Program-made: the position numbers and the translations under genes | Notes under the pieces: generated by a model | The model's database searches: none | Told to the model about the DNA's origin: nothing | What the model saw: the letters and a program-made list of their open reading frames with translations, nothing else | Part shown: piece after piece, positions 27,284 through 38,719 of the stretch | Layout of the letters: every line of letters starts with the position of its first letter | How positions within the stretch are numbered: the stretch's first letter is position 1 | DNA from: Deltaproteobacteria bacterium | GTDB taxonomy: Bacteria; Desulfobacterota; Desulfobulbia; Desulfobulbales; Desulfurivibrionaceae | Direction: 5' to 3' | Length of the DNA stretch: 64,000 bases | Assembly: GCA_026388735.1 (NCBI GenBank) | Contig: JAPLJG010000009.1 | Location: forward strand, 362 to 64,361

Positions 27284-29962
27284 CTACACCTTGGCCAGAT
27301 TTTCCCCCACCACCGTGTTCACCACCAGAGGGACATCAAGCTGCATCACCCCTTCCATGGCCTCCTTGACCACACCCTTGGTCGCCTCGATTTCCGCAGC
27401 CGGAACCTCAAAGACCAGCTCGTCATGGATCTGGAGCAGGAGTTTTGCGCCCAGGCCCTGTTCGCTGAGCCGCCGGGTGGCAGCGATGGTGGCTAGTTTG
27501 ATAATGTCGGCGGCTGTGCCCTGGATGGGGGTGTTGATCGCGGTGCGCTCGGCAAATTCGCGGCTGACCTTATTGCTGCTGTTGATATCGGGCAACAGGC
27601 GGCGCCGATTGAGCAGGGTGGTGACAAAGCCGTCCTGTCGCGCTTTTTCGACGATCTCTTCCATGAAGCGCTTCACCCCGGCATAGTGGGCGAAGTAGCG
27701 CTCGATGAAGGTGGCGGCTTCCTTGCGGCTCAGGTTGAGTTGGGCGGCCAGGCCAAAGGCGCTTATCCCGTAAATAATGCCGAAATTGATGGTCTTGGCC
27801 ACCCGCCGCATCTCCGGGGAGATAAAGGCGGCATTGACCCGGAAGATCTCGGCCGCGGTCTGGTTGTGCACGTCCTGGCCCGTGCGGAAGGCGGTGAGCA
27901 GAGCCGGATCTTTAGCATAATGGGCCATGACCCGCAGGTCGATCTGTGAATAGTCGGCAGAGAGAAAGAGCTGGCCTGGCGCGGCCACGAAAGCGGCCCG
28001 GATTTTCTGGCCCTCGGGGGTGCGGATCGGGATATTTTGCAGGTTGGGGTTGCTGCTGCTCAAGCGGCCGGTGGCGGTGACGGTCTGGTTGAACGAGGTG
28101 TGAACCCGCCCGGTTTTGGGGTGAATGAGCTCCGGCAGTTTGTCCACATAGGTGTTCTTGAGCTTGCTCAAGGTCCGGTGGGCCAGGATCGCCGCAGGCA
28201 GATCGTGCTGCCGGGCCAGACTTTCCAGTACTTTGACATCGGTGGAATAGCCGGTTTTGGTTTTGCGGCCCTGGGGCAGTCCCAGCTTGGCAAAGAGGAT
28301 CTCGCCGAGCTGGCGGGTGGAATTGATGTTGAACTCCTCCCCGGCCAGGGCATAGATGGCCTTTTCCAGCTCAGCCAGCTGGAGGCCGAAATCCTCGGAC
28401 AGGTGCTGCAACTGGGCCTGGTCCACGGTGATGCCGGTCCGCTCCATCTGGACCAGAATGGGGACCAGCGCCATCTCCAGGTCGGAGAAAAGCTCCCAGA
28501 GGCCAAGCTTTTCGAGCTGTGGCCGGAACTGTTGCCAGAGCAGGAAGGCCCCGATCACATCCTCGCAGGAATAGTCCTTGGCCGCCTCCGGGGCAACATA
28601 GGCAAAGCTGTCCGACCGCTTGTCGTTGTCGGTGACTTCGCCGAAGCTGGTCAACCGTTTGCCGAGCATATCCAGGCACAGGTCGTCGAGCTTTTGCGAC
28701 CGGCGGGAGGGGTCAAGGAGGTACGAGGCGATCATGGTGTCCCAGAGGGGGCCGGACAGCCGGAGACCGTGGTTTTCCAGGATGGGCAGATCGAATTTGA
28801 GATTGTGGCCGAGCTTGGGCAGGTCGGGGTCGGAAAAAAGCAGGGTCAGGCTTTTTTGGACCAGGGACAGGGGCAGCTGATTGGCCACGAGGCCTCCGTC
28901 ACTATCCCGATGGTCAATGGGTAGGTAATAGGCCTCCTCGGCTGTGGTGCAGAGGGAGATGCCCACTAGCTTGGCCACCAGCGGGTCAAGGGAGGTGGTT
29001 TCCGTGTCCAGCACCAGCAAGGGGGCGGTGGCCATCTGTTGGCAGACCTTCTGGAGCTGGTCCTCCGTGCTGATCAGCTGGAAGCCCTTGGTCTCAAGGG
29101 CAACGGCCTTAGAGGTCGGGGCCTTGAGCAGGCGGCTGAAATCGAGAAAGGTGTAGAGTTCCTGAAGTTTTTCCTCGTTGGGCTCAGGGATTGCGTATTC
29201 TTGGAGTTCTGGGGTGGCCAGATCTTCCTTGAGGGCGATGAGCTGGCGGGAGAGAAAGGCGTTCTCTCGACTGGCCAGAAGTTTTTCTTTGAGCTTTGCC
29301 TGGGAGAGGGTTTCGATATTTTGATAGAGGCCCTCCAGCGAACCGTATTCATTGATCAGTTTTTCTGCGGTTTTTGGGCCGATACCAGCCACGCCGGGCA
29401 CGTTATCCGAGCTGTCGCCCATCAGGGCGAAAAAATCCAGGAGCTGTTGCGGCGGGATATTGTATTTTTTCTGCACTGCGGCGGGGTTCATGAACACGTC
29501 CCGCATGGGGTCCCAGACGGTGATGGTCTCCGAAACCAGCTGGAGCAGGTCTTTGTCCCCGGAGACCAGGATTACCGGGTGCCCTTGGGCTGCGAGCTTT
29601 TTGGCCGCAGAGGCCAACAGGTCATCGGCCTCATAGCCTTGGCGCTCCAGGCAGGCGAAATTGTGGGCGGCGACGATCTCTTTAATGTAAGGGATCTGGC
29701 AGGCAAGGTCGTCGGGCATGGACGGACGATTTGCTTTGTAGGCCTGGTACATTTCATGGCGGAAGTTGGGGCCCCGCACATCAAAGGCGATGCCGATAAA
29801 CCTGGGCGCCTTCTCCCGCAGGACCCGGAGCAGGATGTTGGTGAACCCATACACCGCATGGGTGGGCAGGCCATTCTTGTTGGTGAGCGGAGCGATGGCA
29901 TGGTAGGCCCGGTAGATATAGGCGCTGGCGTCGATGAGGTACACAGGTTCTTGCTGGATCAT
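27284..29962 (-). CDS. polA: DNA polymerase I
   Basis: Contains 5'-nuclease, 3'-5' exonuclease and polymerase domains, including motif A (LSADYSQIDLRV) and motif B (RRVAKTINFGIIYG). The start is set at MIQQEPVYLIDASAY. The track ORF adds 8 aa upstream. Confidence 0.95.
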   Translation of the reverse strand: MIQQEPVYLIDASAYIYRAYHAIAPLTNKNGLPTHAVYGFTNILLRVLREKAPRFIGIAFDVRGPNFRHEMYQAYKANRPSMPDDLACQIPYIKEIVAAHNFACLERQGYEADDLLASAAKKLAAQGHPVILVSGDKDLLQLVSETITVWDPMRDVFMNPAAVQKKYNIPPQQLLDFFALMGDSSDNVPGVAGIGPKTAEKLINEYGSLEGLYQNIETLSQAKLKEKLLASRENAFLSRQLIALKEDLATPELQEYAIPEPNEEKLQELYTFLDFSRLLKAPTSKAVALETKGFQLISTEDQLQKVCQQMATAPLLVLDTETTSLDPLVAKLVGISLCTTAEEAYYLPIDHRDSDGGLVANQLPLSLVQKSLTLLFSDPDLPKLGHNLKFDLPILENHGLRLSGPLWDTMIASYLLDPSRRSQKLDDLCLDMLGKRLTSFGEVTDNDKRSDSFAYVAPEAAKDYSCEDVIGAFLLWQQFRPQLEKLGLWELFSDLEMALVPILVQMERTGITVDQAQLQHLSEDFGLQLAELEKAIYALAGEEFNINSTRQLGEILFAKLGLPQGRKTKTGYSTDVKVLESLARQHDLPAAILAHRTLSKLKNTYVDKLPELIHPKTGRVHTSFNQTVTATGRLSSSNPNLQNIPIRTPEGQKIRAAFVAAPGQLFLSADYSQIDLRVMAHYAKDPALLTAFRTGQDVHNQTAAEIFRVNAAFISPEMRRVAKTINFGIIYGISAFGLAAQLNLSRKEAATFIERYFAHYAGVKRFMEEIVEKARQDGFVTTLLNRRRLLPDINSSNKVSREFAERTAINTPIQGTAADIIKLATIAATRRLSEQGLGAKLLLQIHDELVFEVPAAEIEATKGVVKEAMEGVMQLDVPLVVNTVVGENLAKV

Positions 29963-30137
29963 GGGGCAAGATACTACCAGCCGCATGGTGGTTTGGCAAC
30001 ATTGTCCCGTGTCCTGTTGCGCAACGTATGTGGTCGGAAGTGTGTCTTGTCGAGGGAAACGAGGTCGAGAATCGGGAGGTAGATGCTTGGTTTCCGGTTG
30101 AATTACGGTGGTTTTTCGAGGGATGGTTTTTTTATTT

Positions 30138-30163: not shown

Positions 30164-30264
30164 GATAATTACAAAGGTGTAGGTGCATGGGGGGCATGGT
30201 CTTCCCGGCGCTTCAATTTCTACGAACGGCTGCAAATAAACTGCAGAGAAACAAGGATCTGGTC

Positions 30265-30564
30265 ATGAAACTAACAGGTATTTTCCCTCCGATTAAAACA
30301 GAGAAGGTTCAGGTTAAGAAAACTGAAGGCTCTGCCGCTGCTAAGGCTGACAGCACCGCCCTGCCAACGGATCGTGTGGTGCTGTCTGTTGGTTCCCTGG
30401 ACGTGCAGAAGGTTCGGGATATTCTTGAGCAGACGCCGGAAGTTCGTGCGGACAGGGTTCAGGCCCTCAAGGACGAAATCGCCCGCGGCGAATATCAGGT
30501 TGATCCTTCCCGGCTTGCCGATAAAATGATGGGCAGCCTGCTCTCCGAGACCTTGGTGGAGTAA
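30265..30564 (+). CDS. flgM: anti-sigma-28 factor FlgM
   Basis: 99 aa from MKLTGIF. The C-terminus RVQALKDEIARGEYQVDPSRLADKMM is the FlgM signature. The track ORF starts at 30187, and I consider the shorter form more likely (AAGGA Shine-Dalgarno sequence). Confidence 0.8.
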   Translation: MKLTGIFPPIKTEKVQVKKTEGSAAAKADSTALPTDRVVLSVGSLDVQKVRDILEQTPEVRADRVQALKDEIARGEYQVDPSRLADKMMGSLLSETLVE

Positions 30565-30713: not shown

Positions 30714-31199
30714 TTATTCCGCCGAATCCGTGGTGAAAACGGGCCAGCAGGCATCGTATCGCATGGGATCCTGCAATACCTGTTTGGCTAGACGCGTCTG
30801 GGGGTTGAGCGCCACCGGGCCGAGGAGGTTGGCCGTCATCCCTTCGGTGTTCTCCTTGGGGATGGTCAGGATGAGCAGGATTTCCAGGGGTTGTTCCGGC
30901 GAGCCTTGCAGTTCCTGCCGGGTCAGGCTGGAGATTTCCGGCTGGTATTGCGGGATCAGGAGGGCGGCCTGAATAGCCACAAAGGCGAGCTTTGGGTCAT
31001 CCAGGGACTGGAGCCAGAGAAACGGTGATTCTTCTCCGTGCGGCTTGACGATGAACCGTTTTGAATCAGGGAAGCCCAGAAAAGGGGAGGTCATGCTGAT
31101 GATCTTCTCCGGGTTCACTGACAGTTGGCCAAAACGGCTGGTGGACACCGTGATTTCCCCATGTTTTTCCGTGCAGGTTGTTGTGGTCATGGCGAGCAT
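30714..31199 (-). CDS. fliW: flagellar assembly factor FliW
   Basis: 161 aa. FGQLSVNPEKIISMTSPFLGFPDSKRFIV...FLWLQSLDDPKLAFV is typical of FliW. Confidence 0.9.
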   Translation of the reverse strand: MLAMTTTTCTEKHGEITVSTSRFGQLSVNPEKIISMTSPFLGFPDSKRFIVKPHGEESPFLWLQSLDDPKLAFVAIQAALLIPQYQPEISSLTRQELQGSPEQPLEILLILTIPKENTEGMTANLLGPVALNPQTRLAKQVLQDPMRYDACWPVFTTDSAE

Positions 31200-31295: not shown

Positions 31296-31562
31296 TTATT
31301 TGCCGCCTTTCAGCGGCGGTTTGGTCCGGGCCTTGTCTCCGCCAAAAACAGAAGCAAGGGAAGAAAGATCCGCAGGAGCCTCCGCTGCAGCTCTAGTGTT
31401 TTCTTCCAGGATGCGGAGGTAGATTTCTTCGCGGTGGACCATGATCTCGGTTGGGGCCTCGACCCCGATCTTCACCTGTCCGCCCTTTATCTCAAGAACC
31501 CGAATCTTTATGCCATCGCCAATGGCAATGGCTTCGCCTGGTTTTCTGGTAAGTATGAGCAT
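31296..31562 (-). CDS. csrA: carbon storage regulator CsrA (long C-terminal, FliW-partner type)
   Basis: The sequence [48 protein letters not shown], plus a ~30-aa C-terminal extension. Confidence 0.95.
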
Positions 31563-31647: not shown

Positions 31648-34600
31648 CTACTTGAGAAAGTCTACCAGGCTCAGCTGCATGGTTTTGGCGGCGGCCGACA
31701 AGGCCGCTTGGTAGGCTGTTTCTTTGCCTTTGAGTTCCAGCAAGGCCTTTGTAATATCGGTGTCTTCCTTTTCCGAGAGATTTGTCTTGGTGGACAGCTC
31801 AAGGTTTGAATAAATCTGCTGTTGGACAATGATCCGGTTCGCCCGGGCGCCAAAATCGGAGACCTGGGTAGTCAGATTCTGCATGAGGTCATCCAGCCCG
31901 GCAATGGACTTGCTGATATTGCTGACTTGGGCGTTGTCCGTTTCGCAGCCTGTGACCCGCAGGAAATTGCTGGTGTCGCCGGAGAGAGCAAAGGTGTAGC
32001 GTTCCGGGTCATTGCTGCTGATCTGGAGATGTCCGTCTGCCGACCAAGACGCGGAGATGCCGGGCACCCCATTGATGCGGCTGGCGATGTCTGACAGGGA
32101 ATCCTTGGCGGTGTCAATATTGATGGGCACCGAACTTGTTGTGGCCGGGCTGGTGTCGTGGTTGCTCACCGCAATGGTGAATGAGCCATTTTGTAATTCG
32201 TTCTCAAGTGTAAGTCCTGTTTTGCCGCTGTTCATGAAAGCGCTGGCGTCGAGAGCCTTGGCCGCGCCGTCAAGCGTTGTATAATTTTGTCCTCGCAAGG
32301 CATCCTGGAGACTTTTGAGGATAGTGAAAATGCCGGTATCCATGACAGCGGACTGGCCGTTTTTGCCCACGTCTATCGTGCTTTGCTGGCCGACCTTGAC
32401 TGCGAAATCATTTTTTCGGTCTCCGGCGTAACGGACATAGCCATTTTCGTATTCGATCTTGTTGACGAAGATTTTGCCGTCATCGGCGGTGTCTCCCGTT
32501 TGTCCGGTGACAGGGGCTCCTCCGGCAAGTCCAAGAGCGTTAAAGCCGGTTTCGTAATTTGTAACCGCTCCCACCGTGGTGGTGTTGCTGTTCATGAAGA
32601 ATTCCTTGCCGCCCCACAGGCGGAGCTCGCCGAAGTAAACCTGGTCTTGGGGGGCGGTGCCACCGTTGAGCTGAGTGACTTTTTCGCCAAGGGCACTGGT
32701 CTGGATATGAAGGTTGCGTCCGTCCATGGCAGAGAGAATAATCTGCCCGATATTGTTTCTCCCAGCCTTGATCCCGGTTTGGTCCGTTTTTGCGTTGATG
32801 GCGTTGATCAGGGTATTGCTGCTATCTCCAGAGGTTATGGCCGTTGCGTGTGAAAATATATCTATTCCGTTGATGGTGAGGTCTCCGCTTTTCAGGTAGA
32901 TCGGGGTGGAGCCATATTCGAGGGTGCCGTCCGCTGCGATATCTCCGGTGATGCCGGTGTTGGTTTCCCCGCCGCCCAGATTAAGGCCGTCAAGGATGGA
33001 ATCATCGAGAGGGTGGGTAGGACTCGAGAGCTGAAAGGCCGTTGCCGAGGAAAAGGAAACGCTGCCGGTGTTGTGTGTGGCATCGGCAGCTTGGTTGACA
33101 TTGGAGAGGCCGGTGCGCGCTATTTCAGTCGCGCTCAACCCTGCCACCACGATGGGGCTTTCGTCGCCGGTTAGGGAATTGTAAAGGACGAGAGAATCGG
33201 TAATGCCGCCATTGGTGCCGGTGCCGGTGGTGGCCATCACTCCTGTCTGCTTGCTCACTGCGTTGATGGCGCTCATCACTTGTGAGGCCACGGCGTTGTC
33301 TGTCAGCCCCGAGGCATTGACGCTGACAGTCACGCCATTGATGGTGAAGCTCGCCGCCGAAGAACCGAGGGCGGTATGGTCGGCCTTCACGCCGCTGGAG
33401 TACAGGGTGGTGAGGGAGGCGGTCACCCCGGTGGAGCCGCTGGCGGCATTGATGGCCTGTTTGGTATTATCCGCCATGCCCATATTGAGGCCATTGGTGA
33501 CGGCGCCGGCGGCAATGGCGCCCAGGGCAACGCCGTTGATGGCAAGATCGCCGGCGAGGATGCCGATGTTCTGTGGGGTGGCGACGAGTTTGCTCGTCTC
33601 GGTGCCGCTGGCCACTGCGGCAACCGCAGTGATGCTGGTGGGGGCCACGGTGGCGGAAACGCCGGTCTGGCTGGTGGCGTTGTTGATGGCTGCGGCCTTG
33701 GCCGTGGCCGAGATGTCTTGGTAGACGTCGGAGATGCCGTCGGCTACGGTGGTGATAGCCGTGCCGTTGATGTCAAGATCTCCGGAGCCTAGACGGGAAC
33801 CGTAGAGTAGAGTCCCATCGCCGGCGTTGTCGGCAAAGCCCTGGAGCCCGCCTCCCAGACCGAGAAGGTTGAGGACGGTGTCGTTCGCTGTGCTGGTGGT
33901 GATTTCAAATGCAGAGGTGGATGAGAGAGAAAGTGTGCCTGTATTGTTGTTGTTGCCAATCGCTTGGTTGATGTTGCCAAGGCCGGTTGTGGAGGCTCCG
34001 GCCACCGCATATCCGGTAATAATGATGTTTGAGTCGTTTCCGGCCAGGGTGTTGTGTAACACCACGGAATCCGCTATCCCGCCGTTGGCGCCGGTGCCTC
34101 GCGCCGCAGTGACTCCGGTACGATCACTTATGCTGTTGATGGCAGCCACAGTGGCATTGGCGGCGGCGGTGGTGGTGAGGTTGTCGTCTATGCTCACGTT
34201 GACCGGCACCCCATTGAGGTAAAAGAAGGCGTTGGTGGTGGTGCCTGGGGCGCCGCCAGGGACAGTTGCTGCTGCGCCTGCGGAGAGGGTGGTCAGCTTG
34301 GCGGTTACCCCCTCAGTGGCTTTATTGTCGGAAAGGCCGGTGATGGTCTTTTCCGTAGCGTTGAGGCCGGTGATGGTCATGGCCGAACCGTCATTCGAGC
34401 GGAGGATGATGGCATTGGCCTCCCCGCCGTTGGCGCCGGTGCCTTTGCTGGCGGTGATCGTGGAGCTGGCGAGATTGATGGCAGTGACCATTTTGTCGGC
34501 CACGGTACTGGCGTTATCCCCCGCGACGGTGGTCACATCGATTAGGTCACTATTGAGGTAAAAGGCCACCCGGGAGGCGGTGCCCGTGCCGGTTGCCGCC

Positions 34601-35346
34601 ACACCTGCGTAAGGCGAGGCAAGGGTGTCGCTGACTCCGGTCTGGGAGATGACCTTCTGATTGTTGATGGCGCTGGCGGCGTTGAAGACGCCGTCCATGT
34701 TCAGGCCGTTGACCCCGGCGTTGGTGATATCGATTGTGCCAGCAATATTTGCCACATCCACCCCGTTGATCAGCAGGTTTGTCGCAGCAATATCGACCGC
34801 CGCGCCAGTGGGGACCGTGCTGGTTAACCGGGTGGTGCTGCTGTCTGGCATGCGGCCGCCGCTGACAAAGTATCCGTCCCTGGCATCTTGAACAAAGGGG
34901 GCGGGCTCGGTCTTGGTGTAGCCGGTGGTGCGGAAGCCGCCAAAGGTGTACTTGCCGTTGACCGAGGTGTTGCCCAGAGTGATTGCCGACTCGAAAAGGT
35001 GTTGCACTTCTTCCGCAGCACTCAATCTGTTTTCCGGAGTCACGGAGGCATTGGCCAGTTGGATGGCCAGTACCTTGGCCCGGGAGGCGAGCTCCTTCAT
35101 CTGGGTGAGAGAGTTTTCCGCAGCGGTGATGGTCTTGTCGCCGAACTTGAGATTGTCCTGGTACGAGGTGATTTGGGTGAGACTGCTCCTGAGCCCAAGG
35201 GCTGTCACCAGGTTGACCGGATCATCGGAGATTGTGGACATCTGCTTTCCCGAGGAGATCTGGTTGTTGACCCGGTTCATATCCGTGGTGAGCTGGTTGA
35301 GATTCGTCAGGATATTGTTGTGGATGGACTGCATGGTGATTCGCAT
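31648..35346 (-). CDS. flgL: flagellar hook-associated protein 3 FlgL, greatly expanded (1232 aa)
   Basis: The N-terminus [15 protein letters not shown] matches the FlgL/flagellin-N pattern, and the C-terminal helix is flagellin-C-like. The gene lies directly downstream of flgK. A ~950-aa repeat-rich insert sits between the conserved termini. Confidence 0.85.
32758..34566 (-). repeat. coding tandem repeats inside flgL (three copies of one module, the first partial)
   Basis: R0 spans 34324-34566 (partial), R1 spans 33646-34227 and R2 spans 32758-33351. All three align by eye at the protein level (see findings). Confidence 0.75.
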
Positions 35347-35358
35347 GGGTTCCTCCTT

Positions 35359-38196
35359 TTACACCGCATCAAGCAGGGTCTTAAGCATCTCGTCCGACAT
35401 GGTGATGAGACGGGCGGCGGCGGTGTAGGCGTGCTGGTATTTGATCAGATTCGCCATCTCTTCATCCAGGGAAACGCCGGAGACCGAATCGCGCATTTCG
35501 CTCACCTGTTTGTTGACCAGCACCGTGGAATCGTAGGATTGGCTGACGGTGCGTGAGGTGTTGGCAACCTGGCCGACCAGGGTATTGTAAAAGCCATCTA
35601 AAGTATTCTGGGTACCGCCGGTGAAGGTAACATACTCATCGTGCTGGGCGTTCGTGATCTTGAGGGAGTTGGTGTTGTCTCCGCTATATATTTCCCCCAG
35701 TGAGTTAACGGTGGCTGCTGCCAGATTGTTGAGGTTACTCGTAATCATACTGTTCAGACCGATACTTGCCGCGCTGTTGCCGGAGAAAAAGGTGTTGAGT
35801 CCGGCAACCTGGAGAAAGTTTGAGGTGTCGTTGGCAAAGGCGAACTGGTGGGTGGCGTCCGGGGTGAGACGCAGGCTGTTGTCGGAGTTTGAGGCCGTTA
35901 CCCAGCCGCTGCTGTTGGTGGCCGCGGCAACCGTTTTATTGATGATGTTGGTGACGTCATTCAGGCTGTAAGCCCGGTCCAGGGAAATGGTGACGGGCTT
36001 GGGCATGGCCAGTGTGCCGTCGTCCTTGTTGTAGATCCAGATATCGAAACTGCCTTTGTCCGTGCTCAGTTGGTTAAAGTATTTATATCCGGAGAGCAAG
36101 GGACCTTCGGGGCCATCTTCATAGGTGAAGGTGAATTTTCCATCGTTGGCAACCGTGTCGCCAGCTACCTTGCCTACCTGAGCGGTGAAATTTCCGAAGC
36201 CGAAGATGGCACCGTTGCCCATCGTGGTGGTGAAGCTGTCCACCACGATGGGGGTGTTGTCGCCGGACGCGTTGTTCTCAAAATGGATTTTGCCGTTGAC
36301 GAGGCTCACCGTGATGGCCGGAGGTGGGGCTGGAGCGGCATTGATTCCTGCTTGGACCGCAGCCACTAGTTGGGTGGCTGACTGGTTGGCAAGAGCATTC
36401 ACCGTAATCGGTTTTCCGTTGAGATTGAAAGTGATGGTAGTGAGCGGGTTGGTGGAAGTGTTATCCACGGTGCCGCCATCATAAAAGGTGGTGGCCTGAT
36501 TGCCGCCGCCCATGCCGAGTTGTGCTAGGGTATAGTCATTGGGGCCGGCATCAACAGTGATGGTACTGGTGGAAAATAGAGTGATCTCTCCGGTGTTGTG
36601 GCTGGCATCGGCGTTGTAGGTGCCTGCGGTGAGACCGGTGGATGCTGCAAGGCCGGCCACGGAGGAGGTCAGGTTGTCAATAACGATATTTGACTCATCG
36701 CCGGGGTTGGTATTTTTCAGAACAATGGAGTTCGCCGCTCCGCCATTGGTTCCATCCCCGACTACGGCTTCGATGGTGATGGGATTGGCGGTGGTGGGCA
36801 ACGCATTATAGGTGTTCAGGGCGCTGGTGATGGCGCCGACCAGATGGCCGGCAAAGGTGGCAACATTTCCTGCCCCCACATCGCCAGCCACTACAGGGTA
36901 GCTGACCGTGACGCCGTTGATATCAAAGGAGATGGTCTTACCGATATTGGCAACACCGGGATCTGTCACTGCTGTGCCTGCCGTCAGTGTTGTCAATCGT
37001 GCTTCGACCCCGGCCTCCGCTGCGTTGATGGCGGTCACGGCATTGGCTGCCTTGGTCATGGCCAGACCCTTTACCGCTACGCCGCCAATAATCTCGCCGA
37101 CAGGCCGGTCATTGATGGTGATGGTGCCCGCCGGGATGGCCATGTTCGCAGTGGAAGCGTCTACAGGAGTTGTCAATCGCGCCACATTTTCTACCTGTTC
37201 CGAACCGGTCAGAGAATCGCCGAACACGGTTAGGCCAACCCCCTGGGAATGTTGTTGGTTGATCTCGCGGATCAGGGAGTTGGCAAATGCGTCCAGGCGG
37301 CCAAGGAAATTGTTTGGGTCGCCTTCGGCCAGATTACCGCGGACCTCGAGCCAGCCTCCGATTTTGCCGCCTAGTTCCGCTCCAGCACCAATGGGTTGGC
37401 TGGTTTCGGCGCCTTTGTTGTCTTTGCTTATCCAAAGGAGTTTGTTGTTTGCCCAGTCCACCTTTGAGGTTTGATTGCCGTCCACCAGGGTGTGGCCGTC
37501 GGCCATGAGAACAGTGTATCCGCCGTTTTTATCCTCGAAATAGGTGACGTCAAGCAGGCTGGAAAGATTCTGGACTAGGGTGTCTCTTTTGTCGCGTAAG
37601 TCGTTGGCTTGGCCTGCCGAAGATTCCGCCCCGGAAATCTGTACGTTGAGATCGGCGATCTGGCTGGTGATGGAGTTGACGTCGCCGACAGCCGTGTCAA
37701 GACTGGTGCTGATATCGAATTTGGCCTGGACCATTTGACTGGCCATGGAATGCAGCTGATCAACGATCAGCTGGGAGGACTGGATCACAGCCTGTCTGGT
37801 CGCAGGTACGTCTGGGTTGTCGGCCAAGCCTTGCCAACTGCCCCAGAATTTGCTCATCAGGTCGTTGATGGCAAGGCCCGGCGCTTCATTGAATACGGTT
37901 TCCACCAGTTTCATGGAGTCCTGCTGCGCCTGGAGGCTGCCCAGGCTTGATTCCTGGTTGGCAAGGCGTTGCACCATGAACTGGTCGTAGTTCCTCAGGA
38001 TTTTTGTGCCCGTCACGCCGCCGCCCAGCATGCCGGCGCTGATGGGGGTCGCATTGTTGGCTTCCAGTTGCAGCGATTGTCTGGTGTAGCCGGGGGTGTC
38101 AACGTTGGCGATATTGTTCGATGCCACCTGGATCGAAAGCTGGTGGGTGAGGAGCGCCTCCTTGGCGATGCTCAGTACATGGGAGATGCCGGCCAT
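35359..38196 (-). CDS. flgK: flagellar hook-associated protein 1 FlgK, expanded (945 aa)
   Basis: N-terminus LSIAKEALLTHQLSIQVASNNIANVDTPGYTRQ and C-terminus GVSLDEEMANLIKYQHAYTAAARLIT are FlgK hallmarks. The central insert contains the same module as FlgL. Confidence 0.9.
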   Translation of the reverse strand: MAGISHVLSIAKEALLTHQLSIQVASNNIANVDTPGYTRQSLQLEANNATPISAGMLGGGVTGTKILRNYDQFMVQRLANQESSLGSLQAQQDSMKLVETVFNEAPGLAINDLMSKFWGSWQGLADNPDVPATRQAVIQSSQLIVDQLHSMASQMVQAKFDISTSLDTAVGDVNSITSQIADLNVQISGAESSAGQANDLRDKRDTLVQNLSSLLDVTYFEDKNGGYTVLMADGHTLVDGNQTSKVDWANNKLLWISKDNKGAETSQPIGAGAELGGKIGGWLEVRGNLAEGDPNNFLGRLDAFANSLIREINQQHSQGVGLTVFGDSLTGSEQVENVARLTTPVDASTANMAIPAGTITINDRPVGEIIGGVAVKGLAMTKAANAVTAINAAEAGVEARLTTLTAGTAVTDPGVANIGKTISFDINGVTVSYPVVAGDVGAGNVATFAGHLVGAITSALNTYNALPTTANPITIEAVVGDGTNGGAANSIVLKNTNPGDESNIVIDNLTSSVAGLAASTGLTAGTYNADASHNTGEITLFSTSTITVDAGPNDYTLAQLGMGGGNQATTFYDGGTVDNTSTNPLTTITFNLNGKPITVNALANQSATQLVAAVQAGINAAPAPPPAITVSLVNGKIHFENNASGDNTPIVVDSFTTTMGNGAIFGFGNFTAQVGKVAGDTVANDGKFTFTYEDGPEGPLLSGYKYFNQLSTDKGSFDIWIYNKDDGTLAMPKPVTISLDRAYSLNDVTNIINKTVAAATNSSGWVTASNSDNSLRLTPDATHQFAFANDTSNFLQVAGLNTFFSGNSAASIGLNSMITSNLNNLAAATVNSLGEIYSGDNTNSLKITNAQHDEYVTFTGGTQNTLDGFYNTLVGQVANTSRTVSQSYDSTVLVNKQVSEMRDSVSGVSLDEEMANLIKYQHAYTAAARLITMSDEMLKTLLDAV

Positions 38197-38199
38197 GGC

Positions 38200-38719
38200 C
38201 TAGACCTCCCTGCTGATCAAGGAAGGTTGGTTCAAGGAAGACTTCCTGCTGAGGCCGGTGAGGCCGTACATGGGTCGGTCCGCTATCCCGCTGGTGATGA
38301 GCAATATGGCGTCGTTCAGATATGTTTTTACATCCTCGGCAAAATGCCTGTTGATCTGGTTGCGGCTGAGGATGTCTTCCCGCAGCCCTGCCAGCTTTTT
38401 CCGATTGGCCGAGTTTGTTCCCTTCTTCCGGGTTGAGCAGGGGAATGAGGGCGGCAAGTCTTGCCGGTTTGCCGGTTGCTTCCGGGTTGAACTCTGCGGC
38501 CAGGTTGGCGAGCAGGGAGTCCAGGACCTGGATGCGGCTCAGCCTGTTTTCTTTCTTGCCGCTCAAGCGGATGAGGGCCTGCATGTCCATGGCCACCAGG
38601 GCTTTTTGTTCTTCGCTCAAGATGGCGAGCATGTCCTGGGAAAGAAGGATTTCTTGGTCCAGAGCCTCGAAGAATTTGGCGGGCAGGGAGCGGTGCCCTG
38701 TGGTCTTTGAGTGTTGCAT
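38200..38719 (-). pseudogene. flgN: flgN (flagellar export chaperone) interrupted by a 1-nt frameshift
   Basis: The N-terminal ~100 aa (FFEALDQEILLSQDMLAILSEEQKALVAMDMQAL...) are in the frame starting at 38719. The plausible C-terminus (NRKKLAGLREDILSRNQINRHFAEDVKTYLNDAI...) is in the +1 frame and ends with TAG at 38200-38202, 3 nt before the flgK ATG. The switch lies around 38385-38425, which includes a T5/A5 run at 38396-38400. Confidence 0.6.

Follow-up and report, generated by a model that had tools for sequence, protein, structure and literature searches.

The window analyzed here, a 64,000-nucleotide (nt) stretch of contig JAPLJG010000009.1 from a deltaproteobacterium of the Desulfobulbia (assembly GCA_026388735.1), encodes a 1232-amino-acid (aa) hook-associated protein 3, FlgL, on its minus strand (nt 31648..35346), and we show that the central, non-conserved part of this protein (about aa 185-976) is built of related units in series, every one of which goes back to a single ~160-aa module. 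The same module is found in the protein encoded next to it, hook-associated protein 1, FlgK (945 aa; nt 35359..38196, minus strand). We consider it the best explanation, with a probability of roughly 0.7, that the duplicated modules form a collar that reinforces the junction between hook and filament. The 1232-aa protein is FlgL, because it scores above the cut-off of the NCBIfam equivalog TIGR02550 (175.1 bits against 127.2, in two stretches, of which aa 2-197 is the best), carries Flagellin_N (PF00669; aa 6-137, 56.2 bits, cut-off 26.6) and Flagellin_C (PF00700; aa 1149-1231, 23.1 bits, a marginal pass of the cut-off of 23.0) at its two ends, and lies in the gene order flgK-flgL-csrA-fliW. 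It is, to our knowledge, among the largest FlgL proteins. FlgK is recognized by TIGR02492 (334 bits, cut-off 171) and by the Pfam families FlgK_D1, Flg_bb_rod, and Flg_bbr_C.

An earlier note on this DNA had described two blocks of ~195 aa within FlgL, R1 (aa 374-567) and R2 (aa 666-863), as consecutive copies of a tandem repeat, with a partial third copy upstream of R1. The coordinates given there are exact (nt 32758-34227 correspond to aa 374-863, and nt 34324-34566 to aa 261-341), and the similarity is real: R1 and R2 align with a Smith-Waterman score of 357 and 87 identities in 199 positions (44%), as compared with a mean of 65 (standard deviation 10, maximum 104) for composition-preserving shuffles, that is, z = 29, far above what shuffled low-complexity sequence gives. 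When only the core modules are compared (aa 373-530 against aa 665-829), the score is 332 and z = 31. The partial third copy likewise stands up, at slightly wider limits (aa 260-355; z = 8.4 against R1 and 9.6 against R2), and all pairings of modules and shorter units in FlgL and FlgK exceed shuffles (z = 4.4-31). What does not hold is that the two blocks are adjacent. A windowed diagonal scan of the protein against itself gives one long diagonal, 387-488 onto 678-779, which is offset by 291 aa, and R1 and R2 are separated by 98 aa (568-665). In the DNA, the repeat can be traced as short matches of 62-77% identity at a spacing of 873-876 nt, but little else is left, and Tandem Repeats Finder reports nothing relevant at the FlgL repeat. 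It should be noted that blastp of FlgL and FlgK against themselves does not report internal high-scoring segment pairs, and the diagonal scan and iterated hidden Markov models (HMMs) were used instead.

The extent of the repeating unit was defined with a module profile that was seeded with R1, R2, and the FlgK segment, was iterated over homologues, and converged on 161 positions. The true module is ~160 aa long: it opens with an IN motif (beta-beta-alpha-beta), continues with a strand pair that bears a GTGxNGG (more generally GxGxNGG) loop, and ends in a set of strands with HNTG and LGLGGG loops. The ~195-aa blocks do repeat, but their final ~45 aa (aa 525-569 for R1 and aa 824-863 for R2) are the IN motif that opens the next unit. 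Read in this way, all on the minus strand, full copy R1 covers aa 373-530 (nt 33757..34230; HMM match aa 375-529, 180 bits; z = 31 against R2) and full copy R2 covers aa 665-829 (nt 32860..33354; HMM match aa 666-828, 194 bits). They are separated by two IN-only units: unit 2, aa 525-569 (nt 33640..33774; HMM positions 4-46, 18 bits), which is the tail of the R1 block, and unit 3, aa 601-649 (LAINGVALG...NGLNM...; nt 33400..33546; HMM positions 3-48, 15 bits), which lies in the spacer and resembles an IN unit of FlgK (aa 362-410; z = 7.8). Upstream of R1, the partial copy (aa 260-355; nt 34282..34569; HMM positions 1-101, 58 bits) consists of the IN motif and the GTGANGG segment and lacks the HNTG and LGLGGG segments. 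It is preceded by an IN-type unit 0 (aa 190-245, LLINGVDV...NGLNM...AINNQ; nt 34612..34779; z = 5.7 against IN unit 2 and 4.9 against IN unit 3), which shows the beta-beta-alpha-beta pattern in the larger structural model described below. R2 is followed by a divergent "type A" copy (aa 821-976; nt 32419..32886; HMM match aa 824-961, HMM positions 4-146, 75 bits; z = 8.2 against R2), which lacks the GTGxNGG and HNTG motifs and whose IN motif is the tail of the R2 block. A further IN motif toward the C terminus (aa 1055-1113; nt 32008..32184; Flagellin_IN, 37.6 bits) belongs to the conserved part of FlgL and lies outside the repeat.

FlgK contains a module copy at aa 422-573 (nt 36478..36933, minus strand; 105 bits; z = 15 against R2 and 11 against R1) and a partial one at aa 588-676 (nt 36169..36435, minus strand; HMM positions 1-93, 32 bits; z = 7.0 against R2). 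Counted together, the units of FlgL are a partial, a divergent, and two full copies plus three that are IN-only; FlgK has one full and one partial copy. Run over the other open reading frames (ORFs) of the window, the module profile gives no match outside these two proteins.

The length of FlgL in relatives follows the number of modules. A full-length search returned 99 FlgL homologues of 858-1812 aa, those with names coming from Desulfobulbaceae, Desulfurivibrio, Thiovibrio, or Thermodesulfobacteriota, and with the module profile, 1 to 5 further copies turn up in each of them. Their lengths form classes about 115-125 aa apart, each with its own string of units. With F for a canonical and A for a divergent (type A) copy, the strings are F + A at ~880 aa; partial + F + A at ~990 aa; F + F + A at ~1110 aa; partial + F + F + A at ~1230 aa, the class of the window FlgL; three F-like copies + A at ~1360 aa; partial + three F-like copies + A at ~1475 aa; and F-A-F-F-F-A at 1812 aa. 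The type A copy is the last one in nearly every homologue, and relatives at 66-79% identity share the architecture of the window FlgL. This series shows that the length classes within this FlgL family of the Desulfobulbia are accounted for by whole units being gained or lost. In two homologues, P0005 (1199 aa) and P0009 (1220 aa, Thiovibrio sp. JS02), the second full copy stops at about profile position 115, without the LGLGGG end, so units have also been trimmed and not just gained or lost whole. Cultured members of the family are Thiovibrio sp. JS02 (FlgL of 1220 aa) and Desulfurivibrio alkaliphilus (983 aa). We also scanned species genomes with the pattern [QT]x[AV]D[AN][TA]HNTG, taken from an alignment of eight sequences. 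The 28 loci found nearly all carry the labels Desulfobulbia, Thermodesulfobacteriota, or older delta-proteobacterial or Proteobacteria names of metagenome-assembled genomes (MAGs), together with Hydrosulfovibrio ferrireducens; none points to a source beyond this group, but the pattern admits close relatives only, and the scan says little about distribution beyond Desulfobulbia.

The copies are old. In a codon alignment, R1 and R2 share 48% of their amino acids and 54% of their nucleotides, and their third codon positions are 37% identical, as compared with 35% expected from composition. Because third positions are at chance while the protein similarity has been kept, the duplication must be old and the similarity maintained at the protein level. 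R1 is most similar to first copies in other species (56-84% identity), as against 44-48% between R1 and R2, and R2 is most similar to second copies (61-82%); in a neighbor-joining tree, R2 falls inside a clade of 21 copies that are each the second of two. Both the similarities between copies and their phylogeny support duplication followed by vertical descent. Judged by these sequence comparisons, the R1/R2 duplication is shown to be ancient and to have been kept, as far as can be read from substitutions, by purifying selection. The extra copies of other lineages branch elsewhere in the tree, which implies several independent duplications. The partial copies found in the 992-, ~1230-, and ~1475-aa classes are closest to one another (74-87% identity to the partial copy of the window FlgL) and so are orthologous across length classes, which makes the partial unit an old one that was lost or moved and not one produced by truncation again and again. 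A recent tandem repeat that varies between strains is ruled out by the blank Tandem Repeats Finder result, the ~54% DNA identity, the third positions at chance, and the presence of the identical 1232-aa protein in nine assemblies, on nine contigs from different runs, with no sign of strain-level variation in copy number. That FlgL grew as a composite module was duplicated within it, as the earlier note proposed, is borne out by the significant similarity of the copies, by protein length following copy number, and by a tree that groups copies by position.

Structure prediction for a single module gives a confident model (AlphaFold2 [AF2] run on R2, aa 658-835, i.e., 178 residues, with 58 module sequences; predicted local distance difference test [pLDDT] 88). 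When this model is compared with the Protein Data Bank (PDB) by Foldseek, the top matches are the cell-surface flagellin of Sphingomonas A1 (2zbi/3k8v; for 2zbi_B, probability 1.00, E 1.9e-3, root-mean-square deviation 3.2 A over 104 columns, 31% identity), followed by the outer domains of Campylobacter jejuni, Helicobacter pylori, and Pseudomonas aeruginosa flagellins and by some phage sheath proteins. These matches cover ~75-105 of the 178 residues with E values of 2e-3 to 0.35 and template modeling (TM) scores of 0.27-0.42, and the segment from HNTG to LGLGGG has no clear counterpart in the matched outer domains. A larger AF2 model of the whole insert (aa 185-975, 791 residues, 56 full-length homologues) reaches a pLDDT of 92.6 and a predicted TM score (pTM) of 0.88, with the pattern strand-strand-helix-strand / strand-strand-helix / strands recurring in every unit. 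It has seven PDB matches at E <= 1e-3, all of them flagellin or FliD chains; weaker matches include phage tail and unrelated proteins. Outer domains that resemble the module or the whole insert in these comparisons are, apart from the Sphingomonas A1 protein, those of C. jejuni FlaA (6x80), H. pylori FlaA/FlaB (9ygu/9yh1), P. aeruginosa FliC (D2/D3, 8erm), and H. pylori FliD (6iwy). Each module is hence predicted with high confidence to fold like the outer domains of flagellin and FliD, and the units are predicted, with equally high confidence, to pack as one rigid multi-domain body and not as beads on a flexible string, since a pTM of 0.88 over 791 residues points to fixed inter-domain packing.

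At the sequence level, the link to a flagellin outer domain is made by the divergent copy alone: within the type A copy, aa 821-909 match an epsilon-proteobacterial flagellin B model (PRK13588, positions 260-349; E 6.7e-11), and aa 822-898 the corresponding epsilon-proteobacterial flagellin A model (PRK12584; E 8.7e-9). Searched against PDB sequences, neither the 490-aa region nor the module profile finds more than chance matches (LacI and fibronectin, E > 0.2). The first ~50 aa of every module, about one third of its length, are the IN motif of Pfam family PF07196 (Flagellin_IN). FlgL as a whole scores 39 bits against this family (cut-off 22.7), and 30 of the 58 module-family sequences match it at E <= 0.01. 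Unit by unit, the type A copy (28.6 bits) and the C-terminal motif (37.6 bits) are above the cut-off, and R2 (15.3), IN unit 3 (17.7), and IN unit 2 (14.3) are below it; isolated R1 gives no PF07196 match at E <= 1, nor do the isolated partial copy and IN unit 0 match the family, the latter having no match in Pfam at all. The earlier note could not assign the module as a whole to a characterized domain, and in Pfam there is indeed no family that spans the rest of the module beyond the IN motif, but the first ~50 aa are Flagellin_IN and the predicted fold is of the flagellin/FliD outer-domain type. A match of R2 to the FIST N domain (PF08495; 25.2 bits, cut-off 23.2) is put down to chance, as only 4 of the 58 family members share it and the fold searches give flagellar domains.

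An exhaustive profile search of 1.84 billion representative proteins finds the module family in only 80 clusters at E <= 1e-3, among them the FlgL and FlgK proteins of the Desulfobulbia lineage; those clusters that were examined come from Desulfobulbaceae or unnamed sources. A word-index search with R2 alone finds nothing, a sensitivity artefact given that the full-length and exhaustive profile searches do find the family. Four true flagellins from metagenomes, with both Flagellin_N and Flagellin_C (P0123, of 1103 aa, P0124, P0125, and P0153; ~700-1100 aa) carry two to eight weaker copies of the module or its IN part, and the filament proteins of some relatives may have been expanded by the same route. 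In four large non-flagellar proteins (P0117, P0119, P0122, and P0115), a full ~150-aa module is present (81-102 bits). These carriers contain DUF4347 (PF14252), FG-GAP, cadherin-like, or PD40 domains, and at least one comes from a Desulfobulbaceae MAG. It seems that adhesin-like proteins have taken up a flagellar outer domain, or that the transfer went the other way.

Two well-described systems bear comparison. FlgK1 (HAP1) of Rhodobacter sphaeroides has 1363 aa, with an 860-aa non-conserved central region that contains IN motifs and internal repeats and forms a bulky HAP region, and deletions of 100 aa within it impair swimming (PMC7277832). As in FlgL here, a junction protein has been enlarged by a central insert (about threefold for FlgK1). 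In contrast to that case, the giant in the window is mainly FlgL (1232 aa, with relatives of up to 1812 aa), with FlgK carrying the same module, and R. sphaeroides is an alpha-proteobacterium with a gamma-type flagellar set, as opposed to a member of the Desulfobulbia; the two inserts are compared by published description. The giant flagellins of Oceanospirillales contain tandem DE regions around a DX insert, in the order DE-DX-DE (Thomson et al. 2018, PMC6248924). There, too, the outer region has been duplicated internally, with a spacer between the copies and length classes that follow copy number, and inheritance is vertical, with phylogenies congruent with that of the host protein (PMC6248924). 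Unlike FlgL, which is a junction protein present in 11 copies, these are filament proteins present in thousands of copies that build thick filaments. Their DE region has been described as lacking homology to D2 and D3 (PMC6248924), and its comparison with the FlgL module is one of description, not of sequence.

Domain duplication is an ordinary route by which flagellar proteins grow, of which FlgL is a large and tidy example, and the general picture of how flagella work is unchanged by it. What is new is that the enlarged protein is FlgL, with relatives of up to 1812 aa, that FlgK and FlgL of one lineage have drawn on the same module, and that copy number forms a clean series; also new is the demonstration that the IN motif is the first third of a larger ~160-aa domain. 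The hook-filament junction, commonly regarded as a small adaptor that does not vary, can thus grow about fourfold along the route of domain duplication known from flagellin filaments. The natural series of two to six modules (858-1812 aa), with two cultured members, opens the mechanics of the junction's outer domains to imaging and deletion, and the ~160-aa family, which extends the poorly understood Flagellin_IN motif to a full fold, is useful for annotation.

At the junction, 11 FlgL sit as a ring on 11 FlgK, with D0/D1 buried and the D2 inserts pointing outward (PMC12221982). In the model that we favor, the conserved N and C termini (D0/D1) would build this junction tube, 11 FlgL on 11 FlgK, and the ~800-aa insert of FlgL would project outward in the D2 position as a rigid arm. 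Some 350 aa of FlgK with the same units (aa ~362-676) would join the FlgL arms, giving a massive collar of about 11 x 1150 residues round the junction, which might stiffen or buffer the transition from hook to filament under load. By analogy with R. sphaeroides FlgK1, mechanical reinforcement or buffering is the most likely role of such a collar. Several points weigh against this reading. Both the collar and its mechanical role are drawn by analogy. The pTM of 0.88 was obtained with a gappy alignment of 56 sequences, and the rigidity may be overstated. Further, the GxGxNGG and HNTG loops are strictly conserved and are common to the non-flagellar DUF4347 proteins; such shared loops hint at a specific binding or contact function that a model of pure bulk and stiffness would leave unexplained. 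Finally, many relatives have one canonical copy, and since a single one suffices there, the extra copies are not essential to junction function as such.

The first alternative, which we regard as unlikely, takes the modules as ligand-binding or adhesive domains (for polysaccharide, a mineral surface, or metal), with additional copies raising the avidity of a sticky collar and any stiffening being secondary. The best structural match is the cell-surface flagellin of Sphingomonas A1, which is described as helping to concentrate alginate at the cell surface (PMC9751261), but that match spans ~100 of 178 residues at E ~2e-3. Although such a function would suit the non-flagellar proteins, at least one of them from Desulfobulbaceae, in which the full module stands beside the DUF4347, FG-GAP, cadherin-like, and PD40 domains typical of an adhesin-like protein, just 11 FlgL per flagellum, placed at the cell-proximal end of the filament, make a poor site for adhesion. 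The GxGxNGG and HNTG loops are nearly invariant between paralogues, as a functional site would be, yet conserved Gly/Asn loops can be purely structural turns.

Nor is it probable that the series reflects near-neutral surface variation, in which exposed D2 inserts can gain and lose domains without harm, perhaps under pressure from flagellotropic phages or grazing, and copy number would have no specific mechanical meaning. The spread of copy number from two to six among relatives, by several independent duplications and losses, is what one would expect of such variation. Against it, the copies have stayed intact for as long as it has taken to saturate synonymous sites, copies at the same position are 56-84% identical between species, and the architecture is stable in all relatives at >= 66% identity; together, these observations argue for purifying selection on every unit. 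In addition, deletions in the equivalent region of R. sphaeroides FlgK1 impair swimming (PMC7277832).

More doubtful again is that the module is a dedicated extracellular interaction domain of Desulfobulbia, common to FlgL/FlgK and to the adhesin-like proteins with DUF4347 and FG-GAP domains, with the GxGxNGG and HNTG loops as its putative binding site. If so, the 11 x (4+2) modules around the junction would make up a rigid platform for specific attachment or sensing (of a sheath, a mineral, or a partner cell) and not a passive reinforcement.

An artefact, either of composition (low complexity rich in Ala, Gly, Thr, Ser, and Asn) or of the assembly of a recent repeat, can be dismissed: 58% of the residues in the repeat region are A, G, T, S, or N and the word-index search with the R2 module alone came back empty, but the shuffle tests rule it out (z = 29-31 with composition preserved), the alignment stays in register across ~160 aa with conserved motifs, the architecture is common to homologues from many independent assemblies, with the identical protein on nine contigs, and copies that differ by 52-56% in protein could be neither collapsed nor expanded by an assembler.

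On the minus strand of the window, the flagellar genes are ordered flgF-flgG-flgA-flgH-flgI-(short ORF)-flgN-flgK-flgL-csrA-fliW, with flgL directly downstream of flgK. Downstream of flgL come csrA (nt 31296-31562, minus strand) and then fliW (nt 30714-31199, minus strand). Immediately after fliW, flgM lies on the opposite strand and faces it (nt 30187-30564, plus strand), and right after flgM comes polA, encoding DNA polymerase I (nt 27284-29986, minus strand), where the flagellar cluster ends on that side. Upstream of flgK, an flgN-like ORF (nt 38099-38719, minus strand; FlgN Pfam match at aa 15-103) overlaps flgK by 98 nt, and its C-terminal ~100 aa, with their many Arg, His, Pro, and Gln residues, do not read like a protein sequence. 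A second frame (nt 38200-38457, minus strand), ending 4 nt ahead of the flgK ATG, resembles a plausible FlgN C terminus. The odd tail of the one frame and the plausible C terminus in the other suggest that flgN is frameshifted, either genuinely or through a sequencing error.

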